From an uncultured Verrucomicrobiae bacterium (GTDB taxonomy: Bacteria > Verrucomicrobiota > Verrucomicrobiia > Chthoniobacterales > Terrimicrobiaceae), in contig CAVPTR010000045.1 in NCBI GenBank assembly GCA_963708595.1, positions 6,875-70,874 on the forward strand: a DNA stretch of 64,000 nucleotides, read 5' to 3'. The position numbers were made by a program, and so were the translations under genes. This document shows, piece after piece, positions 14,266 through 33,503 of the stretch (the stretch's first letter is position 1; each line of letters begins with the position of its first letter). The notes beneath the pieces are model-generated. The model saw nothing but the letters and a program-made list of their open reading frames with translations, had not been told where the DNA came from and made no database searches.

Positions 14266-15718
14266 TCAAACGGGTGCGTTTTCCTTGCTCCAGCCGGACG
14301 CGCGTTCGTAGGCGTCGGCGATACCGAGCATGCGGGTTTCAGCGAGCGATTTCCCGAGGAACTGGAGGCCGACGGGAAGTTTGTTCTCGCCTTCGCCCAC
14401 GAATCCGCACGGCACGCTGATCCCGCAGATTCCCGCAAGATTGGCGGCAATAGTGAAGATGTCTGCGAGGTACATCTTCAGCGGGTCGCTCGTGCGTTCG
14501 CCGATAGGGAAAGCGACATCGGGCGAAGTGGGACAAACGATGACGTCCGCCTTCTCAAAGGCCGTCGCAAAGTCCCGGCGGATGAGAGTGCGGACTTTTT
14601 GCGCGCGAAGATAGTAGGCGTCGTAATATCCGCTGGACAGAACGTAGGTCCCGAGAATGATGCGGCGCTTCACCTCGCTGCCAAATCCCTCCTCCCGAGT
14701 GCGAACATAAAGGTCCGTGAGATCCTTGGGCTGATCCGCACGGCGGCCATAGCGGACGCCGTCGAAACGGGCAAGGTTGGCCGAAGCTTCGGCGGTTGCG
14801 ATAATATAATAGACGGAAACCGCATACTCGGTATGCGGCAAAGAGAGTTCCACGAGCTCAGCACCATTTTCGGCGCATTGTTGGATGGCGGCTTCGATAG
14901 TGGACTTCACGCGGGCGTCCATGCCATCGACAAAATATTCCTTCGGGATGCCCAGGCGGACGCCCTTGAGATCGCGACCGAGCTCGGCGGTAAAATCCTC
15001 TGTCGGGTGATCCAGTGAGGTCGAGTCCATCGGGTCACGTCCTGCGATAGCGTTGAGCAAAAGCGCGCAGTCACGCGTCGAACGCGCAAACGGACCGATC
15101 TGATCCAGGGAGGACGCAAAGGCAACAAGACCATAACGCGAAACGCGTCCGTAGCTCGGCTTCAGCCCGACACACCCGCAAAGCGCTGCCGGCTGACGGA
15201 TCGAGCCGCCGGTATCCGAACCCAGCGCGGCGGGGACTTCACATGCGGCGACGGCGGCCGCCGACCCGCCGCTCGATCCACCGGGGATGCGCGTGGTGTC
15301 CCACGGGTTGCGTGTGGTCTGGAAGGCAGAGTTTTCGGTTGAAGAACCCATGGCGAATTCGTCCATGTTCAATCTGCCGAACGGGATGGCGCCAGCAGCC
15401 CTAAGCCGCGCGATAACCGTTGCGTCGTAGGGCGCGGTATAGCCCTGCAGGATTTTCGAAGCGCAGGTGCAGGAATCACCCTTCACACTGATCACATCTT
15501 TGATGCCGATGGGGATTCCTCCGAGCGGGAGCGAAACGTCAGCCGCTTCGGCTTTGCGCAGGGCGGCTTCAAAATCACGGGAAAGGAATGCCTGCACGGT
15601 AGGCTCCACGGAGCGGATTCGCGATTCGAGCGCACGCAATAAGTCAACGGGGTGGAAAGGCTTTGGAGCGGAAACCCTCCTGAATTTCGGAAGCGGTGAG
15701 GCGGACAAGATCGATCAT
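14266..15718 (-). pseudogene. gatA: Glu/Asp-tRNA amidotransferase subunit A; N-terminal ~20 codons out of frame as assembled
   Basis: ORF 14266..15708 carries the amidase signature ([12 protein letters not shown]). The true N-terminus [21 protein letters not shown] starts at the ATG at 15716-15718 in another frame. The join is at about 15655-15660 (gcctttccacccc where AFHPV is expected). 1453 nt minus 1 gives 484 codons. Confidence 0.9.
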
Positions 15719-16004
15719 TCGACGACTTTCGGAACGATGACGAGATTGTTGACGGTGCGCGGCGCGAGGCTCGAGGGCCGCTTCGCGCGACATGCTGGCG
15801 CCCGGAGCTATCCTGACGCGTCACGTTGAAGATCGGATAGGTGTGTGCGGTCGGTTCGACGCCCGAGACGTCTAGTTCCTTGAGGTGCTCGATATGTTCG
15901 AGCACACGGCCGAGCTGATCTTGGAAGGTGTCGACTTCCTCCTCGGCCAAGGCTATGCGCGCCAGTCTGGCAACATGGCGGACGTCAAGATCGGGGCTGC
16001 TCAT
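15715..16004 (-). pseudogene. gatC: Glu/Asp-tRNA amidotransferase subunit C; two frame changes within ~50 nt as assembled
   Basis: MSSPDLDVRHVARLARIALAEEEVDTFQDQLGRVLEHIEHLKELDVSGVEPTAHTYPIFNVTRQD, then APGASMSREAALEPRA, then PRTVNNLVIVPKVVE*, in three frames. The stop overlaps the gatA ATG (ATGA). 290 nt minus 2 gives 96 codons. Confidence 0.85.
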
Positions 16005-16068
16005 AAGGATCGGATATCATTGCGGGGATCTTTGGTCCCTACAAGGCGGCGCGTCATCTTGGTCGAAA

Positions 16069-17189
16069 TCATACGATTCGGTGTGTCGTCACCGGGTCGA
16101 AGAGATGCGCGACTGTTGCGTCGATCTGGAATTTGAACCGGTGGCCTGCATCGGCTTGTTGTGCGCCAGAGGACTACGGCTGATAATGGGATGCGCGCCG
16201 GTCTGTAAGGTGAAAATAGGTTTCTGCACCCATGGGCTCGACGATATCCACCACCGCCTGGAAGCTGTTGTTCGATGAGCATTGTCCTGATGAAACGAGG
16301 TCGCAATTCTCGGGCCGGACGCCAAGGACGACTTCCTTGCCGACGTAACCAGCGGCAGCTTTGCGGTCGCCGAGCTCAACTTCGATCGCGCCGCCCTGCA
16401 CTTCCGTGAAAACGAGGGCGCCGTTGCGCTCGTGCAAGTCGCCCTTGACGAGATTCATCGGGGGACTGCCCAAGAAGCCGGCGACGAAAAGGTTCTTTGG
16501 CTCGTTATAGATTTTCAGCGGGCTATCCACTTGCTGGATCACGCCATCCTTCATCACGACGATGCGCGTGCCCATGAGTCATGGCTTCAATTTGATCGTG
16601 GGTCACGTAGATCATCGTAGCTTGGAGGCGCTGATGGAGCTTCGTGATTTCCGTGCGCATTTGAACGCGCATCTTGGCATCGAGATTCGAGAGCGGTTCG
16701 TCGAAGAGAAAAACTTCCGGCTGGCGCACGATGGCGCGACCGACCGCGACGCGTTGGCGTTGGCCACCGGAAAGGGCCTTTGGCCTGCGATCGAGGAGTT
16801 GCTCGATGCCCAGGAGGTCCGCAGCTTCCGATGACGCGCTTCTTGATCTCCGCCTTGGGATACTTCCGCAGTTCCAGGCTAAATGCCATATTGTCATACA
16901 CGCTCATGTGCGGATAGAGCGCGTAGTTTTGAAAAACCATCGCGATGTCACGGTCCTTCGGAGGAAGATCATTGACGCGTTTGTCGGCGATCAAAACATC
17001 ACCTTTCGAGATCTCCTCGAGACCGGCGATCATTCGCAAGGTCGTGGACTTTCCACAGCCGGACGGGCCGACGAAAACCACGAACTCCCGGTCAAAAATG
17101 TCGAGACTGAAATTCTCCACAGCCGTGACGTCCTTGCCTCTATCTCCAGGGTAGATCTTATAGACGTTTCTGAGGGTTACTTTGGCCAT
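16069..17189 (-). pseudogene. Sugar ABC transporter ATP-binding protein (MalK/UgpC/MsmX-like); four frame changes
   Basis: Collinear fragments: the Walker A piece [13 protein letters not shown]...[18 protein letters not shown], the signature and Walker B piece [28 protein letters not shown], then [41 protein letters not shown], and a tail ...QTGAHPII... / RFKFQIDATVAHLFDPVTTHRIV* from my own translation. Confidence 0.85.
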
Positions 17190-17292: not shown

Positions 17293-18361
17293 ATGAAAGT
17301 TGCTCCAATGCTCAGGCATGACTTTGGAACGGGCGGAGGGGGTGAACCGGGCCGGTCAGCTGTCGACGGTCTTTTCCTCGCTGAAGACTCTAGGTCTTAC
17401 CGACCGCGGCTTACTCAATGAGATCATGCGAGGAGTCCTGGTGGCAAACCCCTGTTTGCTTGGTGTCTGGACTGTGTGGGAGCCGGACGCTCTGGACGGT
17501 CGGGACGCGATGTTTGCCGGCGCACCGGGCCACGATCACAGCGGGCGGTTCGTGCCGCTTCTGGCATCGTTACGGGGGCCGGATCCAGCTCGAGGCTAAC
17601 ATCGACTACGACAAACCTGACGCCGACTGGTATTTCACGCCAAGCGCGCCGAAAAGCGGAAGTCTTGATTGATCCTTACGAATATCGAGTTGCCGGAAAG
17701 GATCTTTTAATCACCAGCACGGCGGCGCCGATTCTTCACGCGGGGAGATGCGTCGGCGTCGTGGGTTTTGACGTACATTTGGACTGGCTGCTCGAGGCCA
17801 TTGACGAGCCGGGACCCTTCGAGTCCATCGAAGCGGCCCTCGGCCGCGGACATGTCGTTCTTGGCGAGGACGGTCAAGTGCGCTATTGCAGCCGTGCTAC
17901 ACGTCGTTTGATTTGCCGGTATATCGGGGGGAAGGCCGGTTCCGAACGCCGGCTCCCGGAGGCTCTTCACGATCTGGTCGTCCAGAGGCTGCGGCGGCGT
18001 TTCCTTTCAGACAGTCTCAAGCTCAAACGTGGATGGACGTTTAGCGACGGGTCTCGCAAGCTGGTTGTGCGATTCACGCGCCATCCGCACGCGGGGTGCT
18101 TTCTCTTGCTCGTGGACGAACAAGTCGAGAACGGCCGACCCGCCTGGCCCGCGGTCGAACTTAGTCCACGTGAGCAGGAGGTAGCGGAATGGGTGGGTCA
18201 GGGCAAATCCAACGAGGAAATCGCGATCATCCTTGGGGATCAGCGCTCACACGGTAAAGAACCATCTCGACAAGATTTTCCGAAAACTCGGAGTCGAAAA
18301 CCGTTACGCTGCGGCGGCTGCACTGCAGCGCAATCATCCTCAGGAATGGATCCATAGATAG
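17293..18361 (+). pseudogene. LuxR-family transcriptional regulator with N-terminal Cache/PDC-like sensor domain; three or more frame changes
   Basis: Fragments 17300..17599, 17418..17672 and 17476..18357. The C-terminal HTH reads LSPREQEVAEWVGQGKSNEEIAIILG, then (shifted) ISAHTVKNHLDKIFRKLGVENRYAAAAALQ...*. The start is uncertain (ATG 17293 or TTG 17300). Confidence 0.7.
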
Positions 18362-18551
18362 GAAGACCTTCCTATTGCGGGAATTACTCCGACCCGACAC
18401 ACTTCGTGGCCATGAAGCCCATGGAAATTCTCCGGCAGCGACTAAGAAAGGCTGGACCGAATTTCCCATTCCGGCCGGCGCGTCGTGCTGGTCGCAGTTC
18501 AATGACGAAGCGCTTGTCCGGGCTGGGACGAGACCCTTATGGCAGGGCCCT

Positions 18552-19255
18552 ATGAGGAACAGGACGGTCTTGTTCATCCAGCACAGCGACGTCGATAGGC
18601 CTGGTCTCCTTGGCGAAACTCTCGGCGGGGTGGACCTCCCACTGGAAGTCATTCGACCCGATCTCGGTCAAGCTGTGCCCGGCTCCCTTGAGGGTTTTGC
18701 TGGACTGGCGTTGGGTGGCGGTCCCCAAGGGGTCTACGAACAGGAAAAGTATCCCTACCTTTCTAGCGAATGCGCACTGGTGCGCCATGCGGCATCTCAA
18801 GGCAAGCCGGTCCTCGGATTGTGCCTGGGCGCTCAGCTGATGGCTTCAGCCCTTGGTGCCAGGGTTCAGCCAGGCCAGCGTGAAGTCGGCTTCTTCGAGG
18901 TGACCCTTGATCCCATTTCACAGTATGACCCTCTTTGGCGTGGAGTTCCCGCAAAATTTGTCGTCACTCACTGGCATGGAGATGTTTTCGACATCCCGCT
19001 TGGAGGTATGCGACTGGCCTCGTCGGCCCTTACCCGCAACCAGCTCTTCCGCTACGGTCACGCTCTTTACGGTCTGCAATTCCACCTGGAAATGACTCCC
19101 GGGTTGCTCGAGGAAGCTGTCGCAAGAGCGCTGGCTTGCTCATCGAGTCCGGTCTCGATGCAGACTTGATTTGGCAACAAGGGCAGGAGTGCCTGCCGGT
19201 CCTGCGAGAAACTGCATCCACGGTCTTTGCTCGCTGGGCGGAAATGCTGTGCTAG
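18552..19255 (+). pseudogene. Class I glutamine amidotransferase-like protein; C-terminal frame change near 19125
   Basis: MRNRTVLFIQHSDVD...GKPVLGLCLGAQLMA...THWHGDVF...YGLQFHLE carries the GATase1 Cys/His motifs. The tail continues in ORF 18935..19255 (LIESGLDADLIWQQGQE...). Confidence 0.7.
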
Positions 19256-19794
19256 CAGCAGGATCGCGAAAGAAATTTCCGATGGCGAGGCGAAATGGCC
19301 TGTTGGCAAGGAAGAGGCAAAGGCCAATGTCCGTGGACCTGGGCCTGTTGCCGATGACGCCGCATACCCAGTTCGAGCCGAGCACTTCGAAAGAATTGCT
19401 TGGGAAAGGGCTAAGCGCGTCGAGGGGTCTCTGCTGTGTTGCGTCGGCAGGCCAAGCCCTAGGGGATTGGCACCTCCGCGCCGCCATGACTCCTCGGCGC
19501 TGCCACCATTCGATTCGGATTTGCTCTCGGCCGTGGTCGGGGAAGTCTCCGTCAATTTTCGTGGGAACCGAGCCTCTCGCCGCAGGCCCCCGCCCGACGT
19601 CCTGCCATGCGACGCACTAGTGCCGGAAAACACTGGATGCATTTCCGGAGCCGTTCGTTTTCAGTGCCCATTTTGTGCCGGGAGGTGGCTTCCGGTCCCC
19701 TCGACTGGCGTTCCTTCGGTCAATCAGCGTGGCATGGCACTTGCTTGTCTGCCGTATTACGAAGCCAGGTGATCGTAATACTCCCCATCCCCTT

Positions 19795-20830
19795 ATGAAA
19801 TCACTAAAGAAAACCTACCTGAAATTTGCAGGCGAGTGTCTTTGCAGTATTTTTGGCTGTCTCCGTCCATGCCGCGCCGCTAAAGATCGGCTACAGTGAC
19901 TGGCCAGGATTCACCATTTTTGAGGTCGCCAAGCAAAAAGGGTTGGTTCAAGGACGCTGGTCTCGATGTCGATCTCGTCTGGTTCGACTATCTGCCTTCA
20001 TTGGACGCTTTCGCTGCAGGCAAGGTGGATGCCGTAACGGCTGTCGCAACCGACGCACTTGTTAATGGAGCCAACGGCGCCAAGAGCAAGATTATTGCCC
20101 TTCTCGATTACAGCGATGGGAGTGACATGATCATCGGAAAGCCGGGAATCGACTCCATCAAAGATCTCAAGGGCCAGAAGGTCGGCATCGAGGTGACGTT
20201 AGTCGAGCACCTCTTGTTGCTCGAAGCGCTCAAACAGAAAGGAATGATGCAGTCCGACGTCGAGATCGTTAACACGGCGACCAATGAAACTCCGCAGACG
20301 CTTGCCTCAGGAAAGGTTGCGGCCGTCGGCGCGTGGTATCCGGTTTCCAGTCAGGCGCTCAAGCAGGTTCCGGGGTCCAAGAAGTTGTTCACCAGCGCTG
20401 ACGCGAAGGGTCTGATTTATGACGTGCTTGCGGTCAACCCCGTAAGCTTCGCCCAGCACAAGGACGAACTGGGCAAAAATCGTCCAGATCTTTTACAAGT
20501 GTGTTGACTATATCAACGATCCGGCCACGCGAGACGATGCGATCAAGATCATGGCGGCAAGGGTTGGGGCGGATCCGGAAGAATATGCAAGAGAATGTTC
20601 CCGGCACTCACTTTCTTTCGCTTGCCGAGGCAAAGGCGGCTTTCAAGAAGGGCGATGGTCTCGATTCAATCTATGGCTCGATGACGATCGGCAACCAGTT
20701 CAACCTGGATAACAAGGTGTATAAGGAATCGCAGAAGCCGGCAAGCTATCTGGCGCCAAGCATCGTCGACGGGTCTGTAGGACGTGAAGGGCACGAGGTC
20801 TATGGCTCACCGCGATTGGCTCGGACTTAA
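19795..20830 (+). pseudogene. ABC transporter substrate-binding protein (NitT/TauT family, urea-carboxylase-region type); about four frame changes
   Basis: MKSLKKTYLKFAG / VFAVFLAVSVHAAPLKIGYSDWPGFTIFEVAKQKG / WFKDAGLDVDLVWFDYLPSLDAFAAGKVDAV...HKDELGK / IVQIFYKCVDYINDPATRDDAIKIMAARVGADPEEYA / ...THFLSLAEAKAAFKKGDGLDSIYG... The 3' end is uncertain (20780-20830). Confidence 0.75.
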
Positions 20831-21935
20831 AGAGGAATTGCCGGAAAGGCTCCGGCTCGTTCTTACAATTTTCTCCTTCGTTCTCCCGCTTGTCGTCTGG
20901 TGCGCAGTCAGCTACCTGCCTTTCCTTTGGCATCCGCTGACGCGCATTACGGATCCTGGTAGTGTGGAGTATTTCGTGGAGGGGATGGAGGTCCCGAACG
21001 CGGAATTTGCCAAGCAGCTTGAGCAAGCGACTGCGGAGGGAGGAGATCCCCCGCAGGGATATCGGGTGAATCCCGTCTATTTGCCTCCCCCGCACGAGGT
21101 GCTTGAGGCGTTCTATACCGCGTTTACTACTCCGCCACGCCTTCCGAATGAACCCTGGCTCCATGAAAGTCTGGGTCACAGCATTCGAACGATTTTCTTT
21201 GGATTTCTTATCTCTTCAATCATTGGCGTTCCCTTGGGAATCCTCTGCGGAACCTATCGCTTTTTTTCCCGCCTTCAGGAGCCATTCATCGAGTTCTTCC
21301 GCTACTTGCCCGCCCCGGCATTCGGCGCATTGTGCGTCGCCATTCTCGGTATCGACGATGGACCGAAGATCGCGATCATCGTGATCGGGACGTTCTTCCA
21401 GCAGGTGCTTGTCATATCGAATACCGTCCGCAAGGTTGATCCGGCGCTCATTGAAGCGGCGCAGACGCTTGGCGCGCGCGGATTGCGCCTGATGGGGCGC
21501 GTCGTCATTCCCGCCTCGATCACGGACATCTACACCGATATGCGCATCCTGCTGGGCTGGGCGTGGACCTACCTCATCGTCGCGGAAGTCGTTGGCACCA
21601 TGTCGGGAATCACCTTCTTCATCAACCAGCAGGCGCGTTATCGGAATTTCGACAACGTCTATGCCGCCATCATGATGATCGGCATCATTGGCTTGACCAC
21701 GGACATGGCGCTCGGGTGGCTCGGAAAGGGACTCTTCCCCTGGAAGCGCAAAGGCTCGGGCAAGAAAATCGGCGGCCATCCCTGTCTCGATGGTGGCGAA
21801 ACAGAACCGCGGGGAATCCCAACCGGTCGAAGACGAGCCGGTCGCGTCCCCGATTCTGGTGAGCTTTGGCAAGCTCGAGCCACCTGTCGCACGCGATGCC
21901 GGCGCAAGCCCTCTGCAATCCTGATTCCATGCTGA
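20802..21935 (+). CDS. ABC transporter permease (NitT/TauT family)
   Basis: A multi-TM protein with the EAA-like loop (IEAAQTLGARGLRLMGRVVIPAS). The last ~60 residues are Arg/Cys-rich and may be out of frame; an alternative frame ends at about 21925. Confidence 0.75.
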   Translation: MAHRDWLGLKEELPERLRLVLTIFSFVLPLVVWCAVSYLPFLWHPLTRITDPGSVEYFVEGMEVPNAEFAKQLEQATAEGGDPPQGYRVNPVYLPPPHEVLEAFYTAFTTPPRLPNEPWLHESLGHSIRTIFFGFLISSIIGVPLGILCGTYRFFSRLQEPFIEFFRYLPAPAFGALCVAILGIDDGPKIAIIVIGTFFQQVLVISNTVRKVDPALIEAAQTLGARGLRLMGRVVIPASITDIYTDMRILLGWAWTYLIVAEVVGTMSGITFFINQQARYRNFDNVYAAIMMIGIIGLTTDMALGWLGKGLFPWKRKGSGKKIGGHPCLDGGETEPRGIPTGRRRAGRVPDSGELWQARATCRTRCRRKPSAILIPC

Positions 21936-22832
21936 CGTCACTCGAACTCCCCGATTACCACAGACAGGATCCGCAGGTCGCAGAGCGTTTCAAGCGCATC
22001 CGGGAACGCCCGATCGTGCTCTCCGTGCAAAATCTTCAAAAGACCTTCGGTCCCCTGGACCATCAACACGTCGTCTTTGACAACGTCTCGCTCGACATCC
22101 ACCGGCGGGAGTTCGTCTCGATCATCGGGCCCTCCGGTTGTGGCAAGTCAACCTTCATCCGCATTGTGGCCGGACTCGATGAAGCCACCGGCGGCGAGAT
22201 GCTCCTCGACGGCAAGCCCGTTACTGGACCCGGGCCGGACCGCGGAATGGTTTTTCAAGGTTACACGCTTTTTCCGTGGAGAACGGTGAAGCAAAATGTC
22301 ATGTTCGGCCTCGAAATGCAGGACAGAGGCTCAGCCGATGCCGAGGGCACTGCTCGGGAGTGGCTCGAGATGGTCGGCTTAAGTCGCTTCGAGGAGTCGT
22401 ATCCGCACGAACTCTCCGGGAGGCATGAAGCAGCGCGTCGCCATCGCTCGCGCGCTCGCAAATGCACCGCGCATCCTCATCATGGATGAGCCCTTCGGCG
22501 CGCTCGACGCGCTGACGCGCGCGAAGATGCAGGCTTATCTTCTGCAGATTTGGAAGAAGGTGGACATCACGATCCTCTTCATCACCCACGATCTCGATGA
22601 AGCGGTGTATCTTTCGGACCGCATACTCGTTCTGGGAGTGAACCCCGGAGGAATTCGCGAATGTATCGAGAATCCTGTTCCGCGCCCACGAACGCCGGAG
22701 CAGTTTCTGACGCCGGAGTTCCTGGCTCTCAAACATCGTCTCGACGAATTGATCCACACCCCGGCGCAAGACTCCGAAGAGGACCGCCTGCCCGTTGTTA
22801 AAATGACCGCTGCCGGAGACGAAGTGGAATGA
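21929..22832 (+). pseudogene. ABC transporter ATP-binding protein (NitT/TauT family); one frame change at about 22419
   Basis: Walker [11 protein letters not shown] is present. The signature is broken: ELSG|RHEAA where [15 protein letters not shown] is expected (tccgggaggcatgaag). Walker [13 protein letters not shown] lies in the next frame. Confidence 0.85.
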
Positions 22833-23041: not shown

Positions 23042-23765
23042 ATGAGCCAGTTCCTTTCCGCGGCCTTGTTTTCGGAGATCCTTCCAAGTGGCGCCATGTG
23101 GTCGATGCGCATTCCGCGCCGTCGCCTCGTCCGCCTGACCGCTCTCGATTCCGACGCCAACCTCTCGGCCCTGTTCTACAACGCCGACCGAGCCGCTGGA
23201 TCGTCTCAACATTCCGGACACGCTCAAGGCGCTACACACGGCAAAGCTGACCCGCGGCCATATCCTGATGACTGATATGGGAAACGCTCTCGTGTCCATT
23301 GTTGCGGACAGCCTTGGCTGGCATGATCCGCTCGGCGGACATATTACCGCAGCGATGGTCGCTGCAAAGTTTGGGGAGCACAAATATCAGCAATACCGCA
23401 ACGACTTTTATCGGAACGCCCACGACAATTTTCTCATCGAACTGACCAAGCATGGGTTGGGTCTCGCGGATATCGTCGCTAACGTAAATTTTTTCAGCAA
23501 GGTCGTGGTGGATGACGAGGGCCGCATGCAATTTGTTCCCGATCACTGTCCAGCCGGTGCGCGCATCGGACTCCGAACCGAAATGGACGTCCTCTTTGTC
23601 CTCGCAAATTGCCCTCACCCCCTTGCGCCCGCCGGCGATTACCCGCGCGCCCGCGTGGAGATCGAGATCTTTCCGTGCAACCGCCCGGACAAAGACGATT
23701 TTTGCCGCAACTTCCGGCCCGAATGCGGGCGCACGCTGGCGCTAACGGAGCGACTCTTCCTATGA
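23042..23765 (+). pseudogene. DUF1989 'urea carboxylase-associated' protein (carboxyguanidine deiminase subunit-like); one frame change near 23195
   Basis: ...GAMWSMRIPRRRLVRLTALDSDANLSALFYNADR / PLDRLNIPDTLKALHTAKLTRGHILMTDMGNALVSIVADS... The stop overlaps the next DUF1989 start (ATGA at 23762-23765). The N-terminus is uncertain. Confidence 0.7.
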
Positions 23766-24409
23766 GCACACTCGTCTATAGCGAAAGCGCTCTTCAGCCG
23801 GAGACTGCGGCGCTTAGTTCAACGATCCCGGCGGGAGACGGCTGGTTTCACCCGATCAACAAAGGCCAGATTCTGCGCATCGTCGATCTGGAGGGAAATC
23901 AGGCCGCGGATACATTCTTTTTCAGCGCCGCCGACGTCACCGAGCGCTATAGCGCGCAGGACACCATTCGTGAACAGGGCTCCATCTATCTCACGACCGG
24001 AACGAAACTGATGTCGAATCTCTGCCGCGAGATGCTAACAATAACAGCGGACACCTGCGGCCGGCATGATACGCTGGGGGGCGCCTGCGCCGCGGAGAGC
24101 AATATGGTGAGGTATTCGCTGGACAAGCGCTTCATGCACGCTTGCCGCGACACGTTTCTGCTTCAAATGGCGCTGTCCGGCTATCAGGTCAGCAAGCGTG
24201 ACTTAGCTCACAACATCAATTTCTTCATGAATGTGCCGGTCACCCCGGACGGTGAGCTCAGGTTCGCGGACGGCGTCTCCGAGCCCGGCAAATACGTGGA
24301 GATGCGCGCTGAAATGGACGTGCTTTGTCTCATCTCGAACTGCCCGCAGCTTAACAACCCCTGCAACGCCTACAATCCCACTCCGATCAGGGTGCTAATA
24401 TGGAACTAG
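23762..24409 (+). CDS. DUF1989 'urea carboxylase-associated' protein (second carboxyguanidine deiminase subunit-like)
   Basis: MSTLVYSES...[42 protein letters not shown]...[18 protein letters not shown]. This is a paralogue of the preceding gene, the characteristic pair found next to urea/guanidine carboxylases. Confidence 0.75.
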
Positions 24410-24484
24410 GTGCGGAGCGCAGAATAGCGCGGAGAAGATTTTCGATTCGACCTCCATTTCCTCTGTGTTCTCTGCGATTAAGAG

Positions 24485-27400
24485 ATGCTTTCCAAGGTTC
24501 TCATAGCCAATCGCGGCGAGATAGCCTGCCGGATCATCCGCACGCTTGACCGCATGAGAATCGCTTCGGTCGCTGTCTATTCCGAAGCAGACGCCCACGC
24601 TGCGCACGTCCGGCTGGCGGGCGAGGCAGTCTGCGTGGGACCGCCACAGGCGGCACAGAGCTATCTGCAGGTCGAGAGGATCCTTTCGGCTGCAAGGCAG
24701 ACGGGCGCTGAGGGAATTCATCCGGGATATGGATTTCTCAGTGAGAACGCCGATTTTGCCGGGGGCTGCGAGGCGGCGGGAATCGCCTTCATCGGACCGA
24801 CACCGCAGAACATGCGCGACTTCGGTCTGAAGCACACGGCCCGTGAGCTCGCGATTGCAAGTGACGTGCCGGTTTCACCCGGATCGAGCCTTCTCGATTC
24901 CCTGGATGAGGCGCGAACAGAAGCCGAGCGAATTGGCTTTCCAGTGATGATCAAGAGCACTTCAGGAGGGGGAGGGATCGGAATGCAATTGGCGCGAACC
25001 GCGGATGAACTCGAGGAGAAATTCGAGAGTGTCCAGCGCACTGGCCAAGAGCAACTTCAAGGCGTCTGGTTTGTTCCTTGAGAAGTTCATCGCTTCGGCA
25101 CGCCACGTGGAGGTGCAGATCTTTGGAGATGGGAGGGGGACCGTGGCGGTGCTGGGCGAACGCGACTGCTCGGCGCAGCGCCGAAATCAAAAGGTTCTCG
25201 AGGAAACTCCGGCGCCCTGCTTGGCGGAGCCGGTTCGTCAGCGGCTCCACGAAGCAGCGCGAAGATTGGGCCAGGCGGCCAAATATCGCTCCGCGGGCAC
25301 CTGTGAGTTCATGTATGATGCGGAATCCGAGGAATTCTATTTTCTTGAGGTCAACACACGCCTGCAAGTCGAGCATTGCGTGACCGAGGAAGTTTCTGGC
25401 TTGGATCTCGTCGAATGGATGATCCGACTCGCATCCGGCGAAGCGCTTCCGCTCGCCGAATACCGTTATCTTCCCAACGGTCATGCCATCGAAGCCCGCG
25501 TGTACGCGGAAGACCCGAACAAGAATTTCCAGCCGAGCTGCGGTTTGCTCACCGAGGTGTGGTTTCCCGGCAGGTGTGCGGGTGGACGGATGGGTCGAGC
25601 GCGGCAGCGAAGTGACGCCCTTTTACGATCCGATGATCGCAAAGGTAATCGCCCATGCGCCGACTCGCGACGAAGCGATTGCAAAACTTCACTCGGCCCT
25701 CGCCTCCGCGCGTCTTGATGGCATCGAGACCAATCTCGATTACGTAATGGCCATCCTCGCCGAGAGAAAGCTTCAAGAAGGGTGGTGTCACCACCAGATA
25801 CCTCTCCGACTCTTGTCTTTCGTCCCCGTACGGTTGACGTGCTTGAGCCGGGAACCCACACGACGGTCCAGGATTATCCCGGCAGGATCGGCTACTGGGA
25901 GATCGGCGTTCCGCCTTCCGGGCCGATGGATCATTTGGCATTGCGGCTGGCGAATCGTCTCGTCGGCAATGATGAAGGCGTCTCCACCCTGGAATGCACG
26001 GTTTCCGGTCCGAAACTAAAGTTCCATCGTCGAGCCGTCGTCTGCGTGGCGGGAGCGGACATGCAACCCGAGATTGATGGGCGTCCGGCTACCAATGTGG
26101 GAAGCCTTCGAGGTTCAGGCCGGCGAAACGCTCAAACTTCAAGCGATTAAGCGAGCAGGTTGCCGCGCCTATCTTGCGGTGGGCGGCGGATTTGACATTC
26201 CGCACTATCTGGGAAGTCAAGCGACGTTCACGCTTGGGAAGTTCGGCGGCCATGGAGGGAGGATTCTTCGCGCCGGCGACGTCTTGAAGCTGGCGGAGCC
26301 GGGGTTTGCGGATCAGTTTTGGAAAGCTCGAGAACCCTCTATTTTACGAGGATCGCTGGGAAATCGGCGTCCTCTACGGCCCGCATGGCGCTCCGGACTT
26401 CTTTACGGACGAGGACATCGAGATGTTCTTCACGACGGATTGGAAAGTTCATTACAACTCCTCGCGCACGGGCATTCGCTTGATCGGACCGAAGCCAAAA
26501 TGGGCCCGCAAGGACGGTGGGGAGGCTGGATTGCATCCCTCGAACATTCATGACAACGCCTACGCCATCGGTGCGGTGGATTTTACGGGAGACATGCCAG
26601 TGATCCTGGCCGTGGATGGACCGAGTCTTGGTGGTTTCGTTTGTCCTGTGACGATCGTCCAATCGGAGCTTTGGAAGATCGGACAGCTTCGTCCAGGCGA
26701 TCTGCTGCGCTTTGTTAACTGGACTTCAGAGCAGGCGGCCACGGCCGAGCGCAAGCAGGATGAGTTTCTGGGGACCGCGCGCTTCCAGCGTGCACAGTCC
26801 GGGCCATCCTGCCCGGCGAGGGGAATGTGTCCGGCGAGACGCCGAGCACTGCACCCTGGAAGGGCCGCAGTGAGTCGCGTTCCGCGCCAACGCGGTCACG
26901 CGATGCGCTCCCAATCCTTCACAGCCTTCCTGCCACCGGCGACAATCCGCAGATCGTTTATCGACAGGCCGGCGATAAATACCTTCTGGTCGAATACGGA
27001 CCGCCGGTCCTCGATCTGAACCTGAGGTTTTGCGCGCATGCATTGATGGATTGGCTGACTAAGAATCCGCAACAGGGAATCATTGATCTGACTCCGGGCA
27101 TCCGCTCGCTTCAGATTCACTACGACAGCCGTGTGCTGCCGCGTGAACGCTTGCTGGAGACGCTCGTCGCGGCGGAGTCCACACTACCTGCCTTGGATGA
27201 CCTCGAAGTCCCAACGCGTATCCTCCAGCTACCGCTTTCGTGGGACGATCCCTCCACGCGATTCGCCATCGAGAAATACATGCAGTCCGTGCGAAAGGAT
27301 GCCCCGTGGTGTCCTAGCAATATCGAATTCATTCGGAGGATCAATGGCCTCGACTCCATCGAGCAGGTCAAGGAGATCGTCTTTTCGGCACGCTATCTCG

Positions 27401-28167
27401 TGATGGGATTGGGCGACGTGTATCTCGGCGCGCCGGTCGCTACGCCGCTCGATCCGCGACACCGTCTGGTCACGACCAAGTACAATCCTGCGCGCACATG
27501 GACGCCAGAAAATGCTGTCGGCATTGGCGGCGCTTACCTTTGCGTCTACGGCATGGAAGGTCCCGGGCGGCTATCAATTTGTTGGCCGCACGATCCAAAT
27601 GTGGAATCGATGGCGGAGGACCGCCGATTTTTCCGAGCCCTGGCTGCTGCGGCATTTCGACCAGATTCAATTTTATCCTGTTGACGCCGATGAGCTCCTC
27701 CGGCTTGCGGGAGGAATTTCCGGTCGGAAAGTTCAAATTGAGCATCAAGGAGGAGACTTTCAGTCTTCGAGAGTATCGAAAATTTCTAGCTGACATCTCC
27801 GACGAGGCAGCCTCCTTCAAGGTCCGACAGCAAAAAGCCTTCGACGAGGAACGCGAACGCTGGGCGTTGACGGGATCGGCCGACGGCGAAGCCACGGATT
27901 CTCCCGAGGAGGATGCCCCGGAGCCCGAGTTGAATATGCCCGAAGGTGGCCACGCGGTGGATGCGCATGTCGCTGCGAATGTTTGGAAGGTTTTCGCTAA
28001 TGCCGGCCAGGAAGTCGTCGAGGGCGAGACGACTCGTGATTCTCGAAGCGATGAAGATGGAAATGGCGATCGTCGCGCCGGTCACCGGCACGGTTCACTC
28101 TATTCGTTGCTCCGAAGGACAGATGGTCATGCCGGGACAGACAATCGCAATCATCGTCGGCAAATGA
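24485..28167 (+). pseudogene. Urea carboxylase family biotin carboxylase (probably guanidine carboxylase); at least 10 frame changes as assembled
   Basis: Collinear fragments run through the biotin carboxylase domain ([18 protein letters not shown]...[10 protein letters not shown]), the KipA-like part (VQDYPGRIGYWEIGVPPSGPMD...), the KipI-like part ([16 protein letters not shown]...[12 protein letters not shown]) and the BCCP end (LVILEAMKMEMAIVAPVTGTV...*). ORFs used: 24485, 25005, 25483, 25782, 26074, 26306, 26827, 27512, 27498, 27946. Confidence 0.85.
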
Positions 28168-29471
28168 GCGGACTTCGCTGCCAAGATCGCTGACACGTTT
28201 CGCAGGATTCGCGAACGCGGCAGTGACGGCGTTTGGATTTCGTTGGAACCGGAGGAGCAGGCCTTAAAGCGTGCCAAGGAACTCGAGTCCGACCCCCGGG
28301 AGCTTCCCTTAAAAGGTCAAACATTTGCCATTAAAGACAACATCGACCTTGCGGGATTGCCGACGACGGCAGCATGTCCGGACTTCGCCTACACGCCGGC
28401 GAAAAGCGCATTCGTCGTTCAGCGCCTGATCGATGCAGGTGCCATCCCGATTGGCAAGACGAACCTCGATCAGTTCGCAACGGGTCTGAATGGCACTCGT
28501 TCGCCCTATGGCTTTCCGTGCAATTTCTACAATCCGGCTTACATAAGCGGCGGATCGAGTTCCGGCTCGGCGATTGCCGTGGCGGCAGGGCTGGTGGATT
28601 TTGCTTTGGGAACGGACACTGCCGGTTCCGGCCGCGTGCCCGCGGCTTTCAACAATCTCGTTGGGTTTAAGCCCACCCGAGGCAGTTGGTCTACAGACGG
28701 CCTCGTGCCCGCGTGCAGGACCCTCGATTGCATAACCGTATTGACTAAGGGCCTCGGCGAAGCGGAGAGGATCGACGCAGTCGCCAGGGGTTTTGATCCT
28801 GAGGATCCTTACTCACGCAGGCCCAGTTCGTTGACTCCGCTCCGTCGGCGCTTCGACGAATTGGTGTGCTGCCGGACAACGAGCGGGAGTTCTTCGGCGA
28901 CGGCGAATATGCCCGTCTCTACACCGAGGCAGTGGCACGGGCTGCGGAACTAGGATGGAACATAAGCGAGTTCGACTATCGCCCGTTTCGTGAGACAGCG
29001 AATCTTCTCTACAGCGGACCATGGGTTGCTGAACGCTATGCGGCCATCAAATCGATCATCGAAACAAACCCGAATGCCGTGCATCCCGTGGTCCGCGCCG
29101 TCATCCTGAGCGCCGGGAAGTTTTCCGCCGTCGATGCCTTCGAGTCGCAGTATCGTCTCGCCGCTCTGGCGCGAGAGACCGAAAGAACCTGGGAATCTGT
29201 TCGACGCGATTCTGCTGCCTTCAGCCGGGACGATCTATACGAGTTAAGCAAATGTTGGCAGACCCGATTCAGCTCAACACAAATCTCGGTCGATACACCA
29301 ACTTCATGAACCTCTTGGACCTCTGCGGGCTTGCAGTTCCGGCCGGTTTCCGTTCTGACAACGTGCCATTTGGGGTGACTTTCTTTGCACCTGCTTGGCG
29401 GAGAGCCTTTGCTTTTCAAGTTGGCGCACGAGTTTGAAAGCGAGGGAAGTTCTACTCGGAGAAGTTCATAG
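28164..29471 (+). pseudogene. Allophanate hydrolase, amidase-signature domain only; about five frame changes
   Basis: The ATG overlaps the carboxylase stop (ATGA). The pieces are MSGLR / [23 protein letters not shown]...[18 protein letters not shown]...[37 protein letters not shown]... / [15 protein letters not shown]... / [32 protein letters not shown]...[10 protein letters not shown] / [13 protein letters not shown]...*. Confidence 0.8.
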
Positions 29472-29545
29472 CAAGGAAGGAGAAATCATCGGTGAGCGTT
29501 GGCCTCGCGGAGCGTCCGAAGGATAAAAATGGGTTTGCGCAGGAC

Positions 29546-29590
29546 AAGAAGAATTCGTTATGAAATGAGGAATCTTCTTTTAGTTTTTTT
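29546..29590 (+). terminator. Rho-independent terminator-like hairpin between the hydrolase amidase gene and the STAS gene
   Basis: aagaagaattc (29546-29556) pairs with gaatcttcttt (29570-29580) with one bulged A. This is followed by tag and a T7 run (29584-29590). Confidence 0.55.
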
Positions 29591-29592
29591 CC

Positions 29593-29951
29593 ATGGCCGC
29601 GTTTCAGACAAGCAGTGATGGCAATGTCAGGATTCTTGCCATTTCAGGCCGCTCGACCTGCACAGCGGAAAGGATTTGAAAGATACGATCCAATCGTTGA
29701 CCGAGGGCGAGGATTCCGGCGACTTGCTCGTCGATCTGGAAAACCTCGATTACATGGCGAGCACGGGCTTTCGTGAGTTGTTTCTCGCCGGGCGGCAGAT
29801 GAGCCGCCAGGGCGGCCGGCTTGCTGTTTGTTCGCTGCGAGGCGAGGTCAAGCGCGTTTTCGAACTGGCGTGCTTCGACACAGCCTATCCGATCTTTGAG
29901 ACCCGGGGTGAGGCTCTTGCTTTTTTCAAAGCACCAAAGCCTGCAATTTGA
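29593..29951 (+). pseudogene. STAS-domain anti-sigma-factor antagonist (SpoIIAA/RsbV-like); one deletion-type frame change near 29652
   Basis: MAAFQTSSDGNVRILAISGR / LDLHSGKDLKDTIQSLTEGEDSGDLLVDLENLDYMASTGFRELFLAGRQMSRQGGRLAVCSLRGEVKRVFELACFDTAYPIFETRGEALAFF. Confidence 0.75.
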
Positions 29952-29994
29952 CGAACATCATAATCCGGCGCTGACTAAGAATCAAGCGGGACAA

Positions 29995-30378
29995 ATGAAA
30001 ATTCAGCTTGCCGTAGTGGGAGCGCATCTGCGCGGCCAGCCTTTGAATCACCAACTCATCGAACTCGACGCAGCATTTATCACGCAGACGCTCACAGCGC
30101 CAACCTATCGTTTGTTCGCACTTGCGAATACGTCGCCACCCAAGCCTGGAATGATTCGCTCTGAAAACGGGGCATCCCTCGAAATCGAAATTTGGGAGCT
30201 GGCGGCGGCGGAGTTCGGAATGTTCGTGGCCGCCGTTCCGTCGCCCCTCGTGATCGGGAACGTCAAATTGGCCTCGGGCGAGTGGGTGAAGGGATTTCTG
30301 TGTGAGGAAATTGCGCTCAGCGGCGCACGCGAAATTACGAATTTTGGCGGCTGGCGTGCTTACCTCGCGTCGCTTTAG
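29995..30378 (+). CDS. Stand-alone allophanate hydrolase C-terminal domain protein
   Basis: MKIQLAVVGAHLRGQPLNHQLIELDAAFITQTLTAPTYRLFAL...PKPGMIR...IEIWELAAAEFGMFVAAVPSPLVIGNVKLASGEWVKGFLCE...NFGGWRAYL matches the C-terminal domain of full-length allophanate hydrolases as I remember them. Confidence 0.75.
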   Translation: MKIQLAVVGAHLRGQPLNHQLIELDAAFITQTLTAPTYRLFALANTSPPKPGMIRSENGASLEIEIWELAAAEFGMFVAAVPSPLVIGNVKLASGEWVKGFLCEEIALSGAREITNFGGWRAYLASL

Positions 30379-30885
30379 TCACGAAGGCGAGGATTTTCTG
30401 ATCGTCGCCCTTCGCTGCCCAAACTGCCCTGAGGAAGTCAGCCGGGTGGAGACGATGTTCCTTCAAAAAGTGGCGGTCTCCGCCGCAGCAGTACATGATG
30501 TCATGGCAGAGTGCGCCCTTCCAGAAAGGAGCGGGCTTTTTGGATGATTCGCGGCAGCCAGGGGATGCCATCGAGCATGGCGCGCTTCGGCGGCAATTGG
30601 TCGGCGCGAATTTCCGCCGGGTTGGTCGAGGCCTTTCTGTTCGAAGAGAAAGTAATCGCGGCGAGCTGCGGCGATGAGCAGGAAGGTCTCCCAATCGGGT
30701 TCACCGAAAGTGACGAAGTCCTCCGCATAGTCATAAACGTTGATGGGTCTGAGACCGACGGAAGCGAGGACGCTTTTCTCATCGCCGGTAAAATAGGTCG
30801 CGTCATTTCGTTTGCCGTCGCGATAAAGGGAAACTGCCTTGTCGTAGACGGCGCGAAGGCTTTTTGTCCAAGCATTCAGTTCCAT
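30335..30885 (-). pseudogene. DUF5069-like protein; two frame changes
   Basis: MELNAWTKSLRAVYDKAVSLYRDGKRNDATYFTGDEKSVLASVGLRPINVYDYAEDFVTFGEPDWETFLLIAAARRDYFLFEQKG / ...PKRAMLDGIPWLPRIIQKARSFLEG / ALCHDIMYCCGGDRHFLKEHRLHPADFLRAVWAAKGDDQKIL... The family assignment is from memory, and the 3' end is uncertain. Confidence 0.5.
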
Positions 30886-30899
30886 GAGCTCTAACTCAC

Positions 30900-32389
30900 T
30901 TACCAAGAATAGTGCACCAGGTAGGTCAGTTTTTTCTCCTCGTCCGGCTCCAGTTTGACGCGGAATTCGATCTTTTGCGCGTCGAGCTTTGCGAAGGCGT
31001 CTGAGTTTTCGCGGATTTCCCAGTTGACCCAGCGAAACAAATGCTCGACGACGCGCACTTCAACGGCCTCTTTTTTTCGATTGCGCAGGATGATTTCGAA
31101 CGACTCGTCGGCCCAAGAGTTCGAGTTGTCCACCTTGAAGGCGGTCCGCTTGCGTTCACCGACGATGTCGAAGGCGTTGCCCACGTAGATGCGAACTGTC
31201 TCGTCTTTCGGTGTATGGTCGATATTGTTCTCGCCAACGAATTCGAGTTGGCCATCGTCGTCGCGCTGGTAAAATCTCAACCGTCCCTTGGGCAGCGCGA
31301 TGCCAAGACCGTTGTCGTTCGAGTTCTTGAATTCGCGCATGACCCATACCTTTGGATTGGACTCGGTGCCGAGGCTGTCGTTCTGCCTGAGGGACGGCCG
31401 GATCGTGACCGCGCCATCGGCTCCAATCGATCGACGCGCCGTCATAGACATACAGCCGTTCGGAATTGACCCCGGATGCACGCACAAACTCGACCTGCTT
31501 GGTTTCGCGATCCCGAAGCGTCATGGGACGCTGGAGCGTGTAAAGGTGGTACTCGTCGAAGGACTTCTCGGTCACGGGCGGGCCGGCGGCGTCCGCTGCG
31601 GGGGACATTGCTCGAGTTCTTATTTGTTCGTCTCGCTGGATCTTGCTGACATCGCCAGCCATGAGCTTGACGCGAGCCTTCTCGAAGTTCTTGCCGCTCT
31701 GATTGTCGATTGTCACCCAGCCGATGAGATCGAGCTCTTGGCCATTTTCCGGGGCTACGAGGTTGTAGTCGGCCTCCCAGCTCATGCCTCCGGAAACGTA
31801 ACAGAGCTCGGCGTCGAGTTTGCCGGCATTGCTGGACTGCAACTGCCAGCTCAATTCGGGCTTGAGAATGGTTTGATCCGCGAGCGCCGGGAAGACTGGC
31901 ATTCCCGGCAGTTGGAACTGGAGTTGTCCATCCACCTCAATGATCGGCTCTGCGGTATCTGCCGCCATGGTCGTCTGCGATTGATAGTAGGCTTCGCCAT
32001 AGCGTCTCATCGCCGCGAGGTTGTGCGGGGTATATCCGCTACGGATGACCCGGCCCTTGACAACGCGGTCCGGTTTTTGCGGCTCCTTCACGAGAAAGTC
32101 GATCTCCTTGCCCTCGAAAAGTGACAGCATCATCCTGTTGATTGACCGGATCGTTGCGAAAATTCTGCTCGAGGATCTGAAGCTCCGTCTTCCCTGAGGG
32201 ATCTCGAAGAATGACGGACTCCGGCTCGAGATGGACAGTGATTTCGGCAAACTTCACTTCATTGACTCCCGCCTTCAATTCCAGCGGAATTCTTTCGCGC
32301 ACTACGGCGAAGTTTTGGTTGTAGATTGTGAGGGCCGGGTCGGCGGCGAATGCAGCGAGTGGCAGGAACAGGAGTAGAAGTGTCTTCAT
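30900..32389 (-). pseudogene. DUF4139-domain protein (MuiA-like) with signal peptide; two frame changes
   Basis: MKTLLLLFLPLAAFAADPALTIYNQNFAVVRE... / ...MMLSLFEGKEIDFLV...ELCYVSGGMSWEADYNLV...GWVTIDNQSGKNFEKARVKLMAGDV... / ...LPKGRLRFYQRDDDGQLEFVGENNIDHTPKDETVRIYVGNAFD...KKLTYLVHYSW*. Confidence 0.7.
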
Positions 32390-32521
32390 GGATGTCGTTT
32401 CAGAGTTAACGCAGCAACAGACCGAAATGTTAGACAAGCTTGTCTTCAATCGTGAAAACCGTAACAAATGAGGCAAGTTTTCCCCCCGAATCCGCAGATT
32501 CACGGTTGCGTTTGAAAATCT

Positions 32522-33503
32522 TCAGGAGTTTCCAAGCACTTCGGCGGCGGTCTTGAAGTGCATTTTGGCCAGGACGGCGAGTGCGTCGCGTCCGCCCGTC
32601 TTCCGCGATCTTCCTGGCGGCCTCCTTGACAGAGGCCGAGACGCCACGAGGAAGGGGAACCCCAATGCGCTTTCCGGCGGCGTCGAGCCAGTCAATGAAT
32701 TTCTCACGGGCGAGAATGGAAGCAGCGGCAACGGCGTAGTCCGATTCGGCCTTGGTTCGCTGGTCGAGGACGATATTGCGACCATTTTCCATCAGGGCTC
32801 GCTGAAGCACGCGAACGTCAGCAAACTTGTCGGAAAGAGCGCGCGGGCATTCCGGCCGGAGAGCGCAGAGATTTTCGATGACGCGCGCGTGCCCCCATGC
32901 GAGCAGGCGGTTGAGATTGCCGATTTTCTGGAAAAGCGCATTATAGCGGTCGGGTCCGATGGTGACGACGCTCTGCGCAGCGCCAGACTTGCGGATGGCA
33001 GTCGCAAGGTCACGAATGCGCTTGTCGGATGAAATGCGTTTGCTGTCGGTGATCCCGATCTCTTGGAATCTCCGCGTAAAATCGCGGTCCACGTAAACCC
33101 CTGCGATGACGAGCGGGCCGAAAAAGTCGCCCTTGCCGCTTTCGTCGACGCCGAAGTGCGGCTCAAACATTTCAGGATTGAGCACCTCCTCGTAGCCGAG
33201 CTTGGCTTCGCCAAGGATGTCCGGCTCGAGGCGGAAGCGAACAAAGTCTTCGGTGCCCCGGCCCTGGATCACCGCTTTCGGCCCTTTTTCATAGACAGCG
33301 ACAGTCAGCTTGTCCTTCTGCGCAAAGTAGAGGGTGTAGGGGCGCGTTTCGAATTTGTATCCCTCCTCTCTCAGCAAGTGCTTCAATTTCGCGGCTTGCG
33401 CAGGCGTCAGCGGAGTATTGTAAAGGGTGATGGCTTTGTCGGGCACGGGACGAACCAGTAAAGCGCAGGCACGCCGGGACGCAGAGGAAAAAATCCGGCG
33501 CAA
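32522..33503 (-). pseudogene. rnhC: Ribonuclease HIII; last ~25 codons out of frame (change at about 32596)
   Basis: ...YKFETRPYTLYFAQKDKLTVAVYEKGPKAVIQG...HFGVDESGKGDFFGPLVIAGVYV...ITDSKRIS...LSDKFA. The true tail, GRDALAVLAKMHFKTAAEVLGNS*, is in ORF 32522..32785. The start is uncertain (ATG 33503 or GTG 33446). Confidence 0.8.

Follow-up and report, generated by a model that had tools for sequence, protein, structure and literature searches.

Why is nearly every gene in one contiguous stretch of about 17 kb of a verrucomicrobial contig broken by single-base changes of frame? The stretch lies within 64,000 nt of DNA from an uncultured Verrucomicrobiae bacterium (GTDB Verrucomicrobiota; Verrucomicrobiia; Chthoniobacterales; Terrimicrobiaceae), namely positions 6,875–70,874 on the forward strand of contig CAVPTR010000045.1 in assembly GCA_963708595.1, referred to here as the window. 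As judged from sequence comparisons, the block is very probably an artefact of consensus building or polishing with mixed-strain reads, so that the breaks would exist in the consensus alone and the organisms themselves would carry intact genes. Its significance would then lie in annotation, not biology.

Density and Edges of the Frame Changes

Frame changes were located with a protein-versus-DNA aligner allowing +1 and −1 shifts; called genes from five sets of intact, syntenic relatives served as references, and the scan covers essentially the whole window. Approximately 41 frame-changing events were found at 15,657–32,598, that is, in 16.9 kb (2.4 per kb), versus 7 in the remaining 47.1 kb (0.15 per kb)—a 16-fold difference in density (binomial p = 2e-17). 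The original prediction of a ~17-kb block with at least ~38 frame changes was thus borne out, and the whole-window scan, chosen beforehand as the test on which the block would stand or fall, revealed no similar density elsewhere. The per-gene list of that prediction was matched almost gene for gene, an event in a permease gene at 21750 having been missed. The edges are as sharp and intragenic as had been claimed: the first event (15654–15659) falls at codon ~20 of gatA, and the last (32598) falls ~25 codons ahead of the rnhC stop. Under the event rate of the block, the clean flank at 10.8–15.66 kb has a probability of 9e-6, and the flank at 32.6–47.8 kb, with its single event, a probability of 4e-15.

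Within the block, distances between successive events are consistent with an exponential distribution (mean 424 bp), as would be expected from hits on a constant proportion of scattered SNPs. A DNA-level multiple alignment agrees with the protein-level picture, and the indels private to the window include 1-nt insertions in intergenic DNA. GC content and skew are flat across 14–34 kb, with no composition shift at the block edges.

Genes in the Block

The genes were aligned with intact orthologues from relatives L081, L082, and L087, and are as follows, with the events found in each.

14269–15718, minus strand: gatA; one +1 at 15654–15659, the rest intact
15718–16004, minus strand: gatC; +1 at 15772 and 15807
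16072–17189, minus strand: MalK-like ABC ATPase; +1 at 16208, 16577, and 16830, −1 at 16169
17300–18337, plus strand: LuxR/GerE regulator with a PDC-like sensor domain; +1 at 17558, 17646, and 18231
18513–19252, plus strand: class-I glutamine amidotransferase (GATase); −1 at 19131
19795–22829, plus strand: NitT/TauT-type ABC transporter, consisting of the next three genes
Substrate-binding protein (SBP), plus strand: +1 at 19822, 19936, 20468, 20589, and 20770, one of the five at its stop codon
Permease, plus strand: +1 at 21750
ATPase, plus strand: +1 at 22421
23042–24409, plus strand: two DUF1989 genes; the first with +1 at 23189, the second (23762–24409) intact
24485–28164, plus strand: urea-carboxylase-type biotin carboxylase; eleven +1 events, at 25040, 25572, 25763, 25808, 26085, 26311, 26798, 26805, 27562, 27705, and 28032
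28165–30378, plus strand: three-gene stretch of allophanate-hydrolase amidase, STAS, and AH_C
Allophanate-hydrolase amidase, plus strand: +1 at 28176, 29199, 29242, and 29399, 5-nt insertion at 28824
29593–29948, plus strand: STAS gene; −1 at 29650
29995–30378, plus strand: separate AH_C gene; intact
30338–30885, minus strand: DUF5069; +1 at 30515 and 30626
30900–32389, minus strand: DUF4140/DUF4139 protein; +1 at 32137, a second +1 near 31460
32525–33446, minus strand: rnhC (RNase HIII-type); one +1 at 32598

The second DUF1989 gene and the stand-alone AH_C gene are the only ones in the block without a break. The assignment of the DUF4140/DUF4139 gene, which is missing from relative L082, is based on ORF structure, frame arithmetic, the L087 alignment, and weak Pfam matches; the DUF4139 reference among the loci compared comprises the first 90 residues of the L087 protein only, and the second shift is placed only to ~31.45 kb.

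The genes underlying the block form an ordinary set, with gatCA, an ABC transporter, an operon for urea/guanidine carboxylase and allophanate hydrolase, and rnhC. In Pfam domains and gene order, the carboxylase cluster matches those of L081 and L082, with SBP, permease, ATPase, two DUF1989 genes, biotin carboxylase (CT_A_B/CT_C_D), amidase, and AH_C following one another in all three. Unlike in the known urea/guanidine carboxylase cluster, the amidase and AH_C are separate genes with the STAS gene between them, an arrangement also present in L081 and L082. No guanidine riboswitch, other Rfam family, or tRNA was detected when the window was scanned for them.

Spectrum of Events and Selection

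Single-base insertions account for 37 of the events in the block, single-base deletions for 3, and a 5-nt insertion for one, and the +1 share (37/41) departs strongly from an even split (p = 1e-7 vs. 50:50). Frameshift-aware alignments showed no in-frame stop codon in the affected genes, and no gene-scale deletion was found in the block. The dN/dS ratio in the block is 0.11 between the window and L081, compared with 0.17 for the same genes between the intact L081 and L082, and dS between the window and L081 is equal in block and flank. In the alignment of the orthologous region that had been called for earlier, all of the relatives examined (L001, L081, L082, L086, and L087) have orthologues in frame at every affected site examined. 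Together with the damage to gatCA, the +1 bias, the lack of nonsense codons, the purifying selection, and the in-frame relatives support the earlier preference for a local consensus artefact over a segment-wide inactivation.

Most of the insertions lie outside homopolymers, many of them between unlike bases, and some interrupt a run, as in GGGGG to GGGAGG at 22421 and TTT to TGTT at 29199. Extension of a run is possible for only ~8 of ~30 insertions, which is no more than chance by our own rough estimate. Short runs are lengthened from AAAA to AAAAA at 19936 and from CC to CCC at 27562; these two insertions could be ordinary homopolymer errors.

Strain Divergence Around the Block

L086 and L087, both from a single JGI metagenome, are contigs of the same species as the window and near-identical to it, and each spans one block edge. 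Their coverage reaches the block ends only, at 15.65–17.05 kb (L086) and 31.86–32.6 kb (L087). Exact-protein look-ups found no same-species contig for the block middle; a metagenome scan with the second DUF1989 protein gave no match above 89% amino-acid identity, and a genome scan gave none above 93%. Comparison with L086 and L087 delimited one further feature.

14908–32881: tract of raised strain divergence versus L086/L087, enclosing the frameshift block, with 17.05–31.86 kb presumably part of it

Mismatches with L086 number 1–2 per kb at 11.0–15.0 kb, 17 per kb at 15.0–15.65 kb, and 44–60 per kb at 15.65–17.05 kb, and those with L087 number 14 in the first ~1 kb (31.86–32.88 kb) and 2 over the 2.8 kb that follow. 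In other words, the flanks are ~99.8–99.9% identical to these contigs, whereas the block ends differ at 14–60 sites per kb. The differences at the block ends are mostly synonymous or at third codon positions, and in gatA, 14 of 15 differences are synonymous. The switch points, at ~14.9–15.0 kb and ~32.9 kb, fall just outside the first and last indels, and at both block ends the errors are confined to strain-divergent DNA bordered by near-identical flanks. This ~18-kb tract of raised between-strain divergence is probably a recombination tract around the nitrogen-scavenging operon, and such a tract would be ordinary population structure.

Tandem Alleles at the Insertion Sites

Eight insertions are covered by L086 or L087, and at six of them the inserted base is the alternative allele of the adjacent polymorphic site, that is, the allele of a second strain. 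Two SNP alleles stand side by side at four of the eight sites (15807, 16577, 16830, and 32598), and at two more (15657 and 16208) the window reads as a union of two haplotypes offset by one base. At the 15657 site in gatA, for instance, the window sequence GTGGAAAGGC is the union of GTGGAAAGC in L086 and GTGAAAGGC in L081. At 15807 in gatC, the window has GC, versus G in L086 and C in L081 and L082; in the gene for the MalK-like ATPase (gene orientation), ACC (L086) and ACT (L081) give ACTC, ATG and ACG give ATCG, and TTA and CTT give CTTA; at 32598 in rnhC, the window has CCCGT, versus CCC-T in L087 and CCG-C in L082. The insertion at 15772 matches no known second allele, and the eighth covered insertion, at 32137, is likewise not among the six. 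The chance of a random insertion copying a neighboring allele is ~3% by our own estimate. In the part covered by L086, 6 insertions occur against ~72 mismatches.

For the block middle, the case is carried by statistics on codon position and synonymy that are moderate in strength (p = 0.06 in the strictest subset). Across the whole block, 23 of 30 inserted bases are synonymous alternatives of a neighboring base, compared with 46% in simulated random insertions (p = 6e-4), and 9 of 14 unambiguous insertions immediately follow a third codon position (p = 0.017). The occurrence of two alleles in tandem, most often right behind a third codon position, may be a fingerprint of a strain-merged consensus, and could serve to flag such regions without reads. 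This signature, as deduced from the alignments, was not found described in the literature consulted on strain-collapsed assemblies.

A Probable Mixed-Strain Consensus

From the observed indel pattern, selection, coincidence with the divergent tract, and tandem alleles at the testable sites, we infer that the block arose when mixed-strain reads passed through consensus building or polishing. During metagenome-type assembly of a Terrimicrobiaceae-like verrucomicrobium, reads of two conspecific strains would have been collapsed into one contig. The strains would be ~99.8% identical in most of the window, yielding a clean consensus there, while in the ~18-kb tract (~14.9–32.9 kb) they would differ by ~1.4–5%. 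There, at a minority of strain SNPs, the consensus or polishing step may have taken the second allele as an insertion beside the first and kept both, each double allele adding one base and shifting the frame; at a few sites, a base may have been lost instead.

Collapsed strain consensus contigs have been described in connection with Strainberry (PMC8302730), and metaFlye contigs have been reported to fall below Q25 for strains at ~95% identity (myloasm preprint, PMC12424758). The block resembles strain-collapsed long-read metagenome assemblies in having small, ORF-breaking indels only where strains differ, with identical flanks clean. Gene calls at 15.6–32.6 kb should be made on frame-corrected sequence, as should those for rpmI, pheS, pheT, carA, grpE, and the FUSC gene outside the block, and none of the affected genes, inside or outside, should be reported as pseudogenes.

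Alternative Explanations

The original prediction attributed the block to a low-quality patch. The consensus artefact in that claim stands; a low-coverage, unpolished, or gap-filled patch as such does not, with the data pointing instead to a tract of two co-assembled strains ~1.4–5% apart. A generic long-read patch of this kind, with random errors unconnected to strain variation, is unlikely. It would account for the sharp edges inside genes, the dominance of indels as in long-read data, and the few events that lengthen short homopolymers, and split genes in the public relatives L083 and L084 indicate that such errors are common in assemblies of this clade. Random errors, however, would neither reproduce the alternative allele at strain-polymorphic sites (6 of 8) nor prefer the slot after codon position 3, and low coverage alone leaves the real, mostly synonymous substitutions versus L086 and L087 unexplained. 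Nor are homopolymers the main context. Homopolymer errors of nanopore, 454, and Ion Torrent data likewise split genes by single-base indels, but they are spread genome-wide, whereas the events in the block are confined to the strain-divergent tract, mostly insert a base unlike its neighbors, and in several cases interrupt a homopolymer. Homopolymer slippage or ordinary homopolymer error was rejected on these insertion contexts, the indels being largely neither in homopolymer runs nor such as to alter them.

A real and very recent inactivation of the contiguous 17-kb segment in one strain, for example, through error-prone DNA synthesis spanning a tract of recombination or repair, is highly improbable. 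The block does coincide with a tract in which strain ancestry differs, as would be expected of a recombination import, and the low dN/dS would fit events too recent for further decay. Nevertheless, gatCA, which is normally essential, is affected, and like events occur at low density elsewhere in the essential pheS, pheT, and carA. Natural bacterial decay is deletion-biased and includes stop codons; here, there are 37 insertions versus 4 other events, with neither nonsense mutations nor larger deletions, and the insertions are not at slippage-prone runs. Pseudogene-rich decaying genomes, such as those of recent host-restricted bacteria, also have many adjacent frameshifted genes, but the window differs in its lack of stops and larger deletions, insertion excess, dN/dS of 0.11 with no rise towards 1, damaged essential genes, and intragenic edges. 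Real pseudogenisation was rejected on the absent stops, the insertion bias, and the dN/dS. Furthermore, we know of no mutational process that sets the allele of another strain next to the resident one. A variant in which the extra bases are real, with a ~17-kb tract imported from a diverged conspecific and heteroduplex mismatches turned into single-base insertions that keep both parental bases, is marginally less probable again; if true, ~15 genes, gatCA among them, would have been inactivated at once.

Decoding of the frame changes by programmed ribosomal frameshifting or transcriptional slippage has the presence of +1 shifts in its favor and nothing further, and merits almost no credence: in every relative, the orthologues keep the frame at each of these sites, with no conserved slippery shift site, the sites share no common motif and are not slippery runs, and ~40 sites in 15 unrelated genes are not the distribution of recoding.

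Events Outside the Block

All six events claimed outside the block (two in pheS and one each in pheT, carA, grpE, and the FUSC gene) were confirmed, and one in rpmI (L35) was added. Five of the seven fall within 5.2 kb (p = 3e-4).

1650–6890, plus strand: sparser cluster of like events; rpmI +1 at 1650, pheS +1 at 2471 and 3139, pheT +1 at 4241, carA −1 at 6890
43184: grpE, 2-nt insertion
~50942: FUSC gene, one event

Apparent frameshifts in an amidohydrolase at 47.8–48.1 kb were discarded as a non-coding upstream stretch mis-called as coding in relative L171, and an apparent trpB shift proved to be an error in the sequence of relative L083, not of the window. The genes that are split in relatives L083 and L084 are nnr, trpB, and that for FBPase.

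Reference Contigs and Census of Frame Changes

The window has a G+C content of ~57%, without a break in composition around the block of frame-broken genes (15657-32598), and protein-guided scans place it in the Terrimicrobiaceae/Chthoniobacterales (Verrucomicrobiota). The nearest locus in the genome collection, L001, is syntenic with the window over 13.8-29.4 kb (DUF1989b, 93% amino-acid identity; 82-83% nucleotide identity), and closer syntenic contigs were obtained from protein searches.

Syntenic contigs of relatives, with the part of the window covered
L081, L082: 10.4-30.9 kb, 88% nucleotide identity
L083-L085: 33-47.9 kb, 89% identity
L168-L170: 1-12.1 kb, 93-94% identity
L171, L172: 45.3-63.7 kb, 82-86% identity
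L086: 11009-17050, 98.4% identity (JGI metagenome sample 3300059965)
L087: 31862-39038, 99.4% identity (JGI metagenome sample 3300059965)

The short contigs L086 and L087 are essentially the same species as the window. In L083 and L084, which come from close relatives and are public in ENA (ERZ250395xx, with "contig_N" names), nnr, FBPase_2, trpB, and a grpE-dnaJ fusion are split (L083 1997-3467, 12254-14255, and 19187-20403; L084 2004-3474), and the window is intact there. Frameshift errors are common in public assemblies from this clade, so these two contigs need care as references.

Called proteins of intact relatives were aligned with a local protein-versus-DNA aligner allowing +1 and −1 frame changes (a single extra or missing base relative to the orthologues), revealing ~41 frame-changing events between codon ~20 of gatA (15657) and rnhC (32598), at positions agreeing between L081 and L082 as two independent references. 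The events are distributed as follows: gatA 1, gatC 2, MalK-like ATPase 4, LuxR-type regulator 3, and GATase 1 at the left end; SBP 4-5, permease 1, ABC ATPase 1, and DUF1989a 1 in and just after the transporter region; urea carboxylase 11, allophanate-hydrolase amidase 5, and STAS 1; and DUF5069 2, DUF4140/4139 2, and rnhC 1 at the right end. These counts match the gene-by-gene list of the original prediction, which was accurate and lacked only the permease event and, outside the block, one in rpmI.

The same frameshift-aware alignment of the remainder of the window gave no event at 10.8-15.66 kb, one (a 2-nt insertion in grpE) at 32.6-47.8 kb, five (L35 1, pheS 2, pheT 1, and carA 1) at 1-10.7 kb, and one, in FUSC, at 47.9-63.7 kb; apparent events upstream of an amidohydrolase gene were discounted as lying in non-coding sequence. 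The predicted concentration of frame changes is borne out, with 2.42 events per kb in the block versus 0.15 per kb elsewhere (p = 2e-17), that is, a density 16-fold lower, not similar, in the rest of the window. Within the block, the spacing of events fits an exponential with a mean of 424 bp.

Character of the Frame Changes

Single extra bases account for 37 of the 41 events, the others being three single missing bases and one insertion of 5 nt. No in-frame stop codon was found in any frame-corrected gene, and the corrected block proteins show 86-96% amino-acid identity to intact orthologues. The dN/dS of the corrected genes against L081 or L082 is 0.11, versus 0.17 between L081 and L082 (both intact) for the same genes, and dS in the block (0.38) is comparable to that in the flank (0.42). 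In most events the inserted base is unlike either neighbor, and several insertions break up runs:
22421: GGGGG to GGGAGG
29199: TTT to TGTT
29399: GGGG to GGCGG

Natural decay, replication slippage, and homopolymer-type read error were considered, and the event spectrum fits none of the three.

Strain Divergence and Tandem Alleles

Relative to L086, the stretch at 11.0-15.0 kb shows 1-2 mismatches per kb; the density is 17 per kb over 15.0-15.65 kb and reaches 44-60 per kb over 15.65-17.05 kb. L087 mismatches the window at 14 sites in its initial ~1 kb (31.86-32.88 kb) and at only two over the following 2.8 kb. Thus, the block sits within a tract of ~14.9-32.9 kb in which the window haplotype differs from a coexisting conspecific population, the flanks being ~99.8-99.9% identical to the same-species contigs. 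In gatA, 14 of the 15 codons differing from L086 carry a synonymous third-position change, and the differences in MalK are distributed 12:7:28 over the codon positions; the differences from L086 are genuine evolutionary divergence rather than noise. Both contigs end inside the tract, which would fit strain variation fragmenting their assembly.

Insertion sites were inspected in a multiple alignment of the window with L086, L081, L082, and L001, in which the window holds two alleles of a polymorphic site in tandem.

Tandem alleles at insertion sites (plus strand)
15657: window GGAAAGG, union of GGAAAG and GAAAGG
15807: window GC; L086 G; L081/L082 C
16208: window TAAGG, union of TAAG (L086) and AAGG; in gene orientation, Leu TTA and CTT give CTTA
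16577: window GA; L086 G; others A; in gene orientation, Thr ACC and ACT give ACTC
16830: window GA; L086 A; L081/L082 G
32598: window CCCGT; L087 CCCT; L082 CCGC

This signature occurs at six of the eight insertions covered by same-species contigs; the alleles seen do not account for the added base at 15772, and 32137 was compared without a third reference. By our own estimate, the probability that an insertion placed at random duplicates the other allele of a neighboring strain SNP is only ~3%, and the match in six of eight cannot be chance. Block-wide, 23 of 30 events add a base that is a synonymous alternative to one of its neighbors, compared with 46% of simulated random insertions (p = 6e-4), and 9 of 14 unambiguous insertions directly follow codon position 3 (p = 0.017). 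Where L086 covers the window, six insertions stand against ~72 mismatches; at this ratio the flank, with its approximately six SNPs, would be expected to yield ~0.5 events, consistent with the zero observed.

Separately, a small hypervariable non-coding patch between trpB and msbA (35660-36013), where L083 has ~7 kb of additional genes, accounts for 16 of the window's 38 mismatches to L087.

Origin of the Block

The frame-change block is correctly observed and highly significant, and is not a biological feature. We infer that it is a strain-merge assembly artefact, the final step being deduced from contigs rather than reads. Reads of two conspecific strains would have been merged into a single contig; at strain differences, the consensus or polishing step would sometimes have rendered a SNP as a paired insertion and deletion, and retention of the inserted allele would have added one base. 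Such a consensus would explain why insertions predominate and lie mostly outside homopolymers, why stops are absent and selection is retained, and why the background elsewhere is low; the block edges would be sharp and intragenic because they mark where the divergent tract begins and ends. Collapsed strain consensus contigs have been described (PMC8302730), and metaFlye is reported to make serious polishing errors under strain heterogeneity at ~95% strain identity (PMC12424758).

The original prediction had preferred a low-consensus-quality segment to real inactivation. An artefact is supported, now in the more specific form of a strain merge; a generic patch of low coverage or lacking polishing leaves both the allele-specific insertions and the real synonymous divergence unexplained. 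Real inactivation across the whole segment is at odds with gatCA being essential and with both the mutation spectrum and the tandem alleles, and recoding conflicts with orthologues that are in frame.

Outside the block, five of the seven events fall in 5.2 kb (p = 3e-4), forming a second, sparser cluster at 1650-6890 (rpmI/L35 +1, pheS +1 twice, pheT +1, and carA −1). Most events in this cluster insert a G on the plus strand adjoining a third codon position. The sparse outside events, mostly such a G beside a third position, look like the same strain-merge process acting at isolated SNPs; 1650-6890 may be a further region where the strains differ at some SNPs.

Genes Beneath the Block

Once corrected, the block contains ordinary genes in the order of L081 and L082: gatCA, MalK-like ATPase, LuxR-type regulator, GATase, and a NitT/TauT ABC transporter, followed by two DUF1989 genes, a urea-carboxylase-type enzyme, allophanate-hydrolase amidase, STAS, a separate AH_C, and DUF5069. 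The last genes are the window-specific DUF4140/4139 and rnhC. Both the window and L087 have the DUF4140/DUF4139 gene (30941-32288) between DUF5069 and rnhC, and it is absent from L082, where only a 47-aa ORF is present; in the intergenic region separating this gene from rnhC (32476-32481), a poly-C run is C6 in the window versus C9 in L087. No Rfam family, guanidine riboswitches included, was found in the whole window.

The allophanate hydrolase (28165-30378) is split into an amidase-domain gene (423 aa) and an AH_C gene (127-131 aa), the two being separated by a gene for a STAS-domain protein, a layout kept in the window, L081 (17531-19769), and L082 (17854-20090). Upstream of the SBP gene, the intergenic stretch (19258-19726) exceeds that of L081/L082 by ~340 nt, and the small NikR_C-like ORF that these contigs carry between ABC ATPase and DUF1989a is missing at 22992, leaving a ~212-nt gap. 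Several in-frame length differences of 39-42 nt relative to L081 and L082 occur in urea carboxylase at 26778-26865, which looks like a linker region, and adjoin two close +1 events (26798 and 26805).
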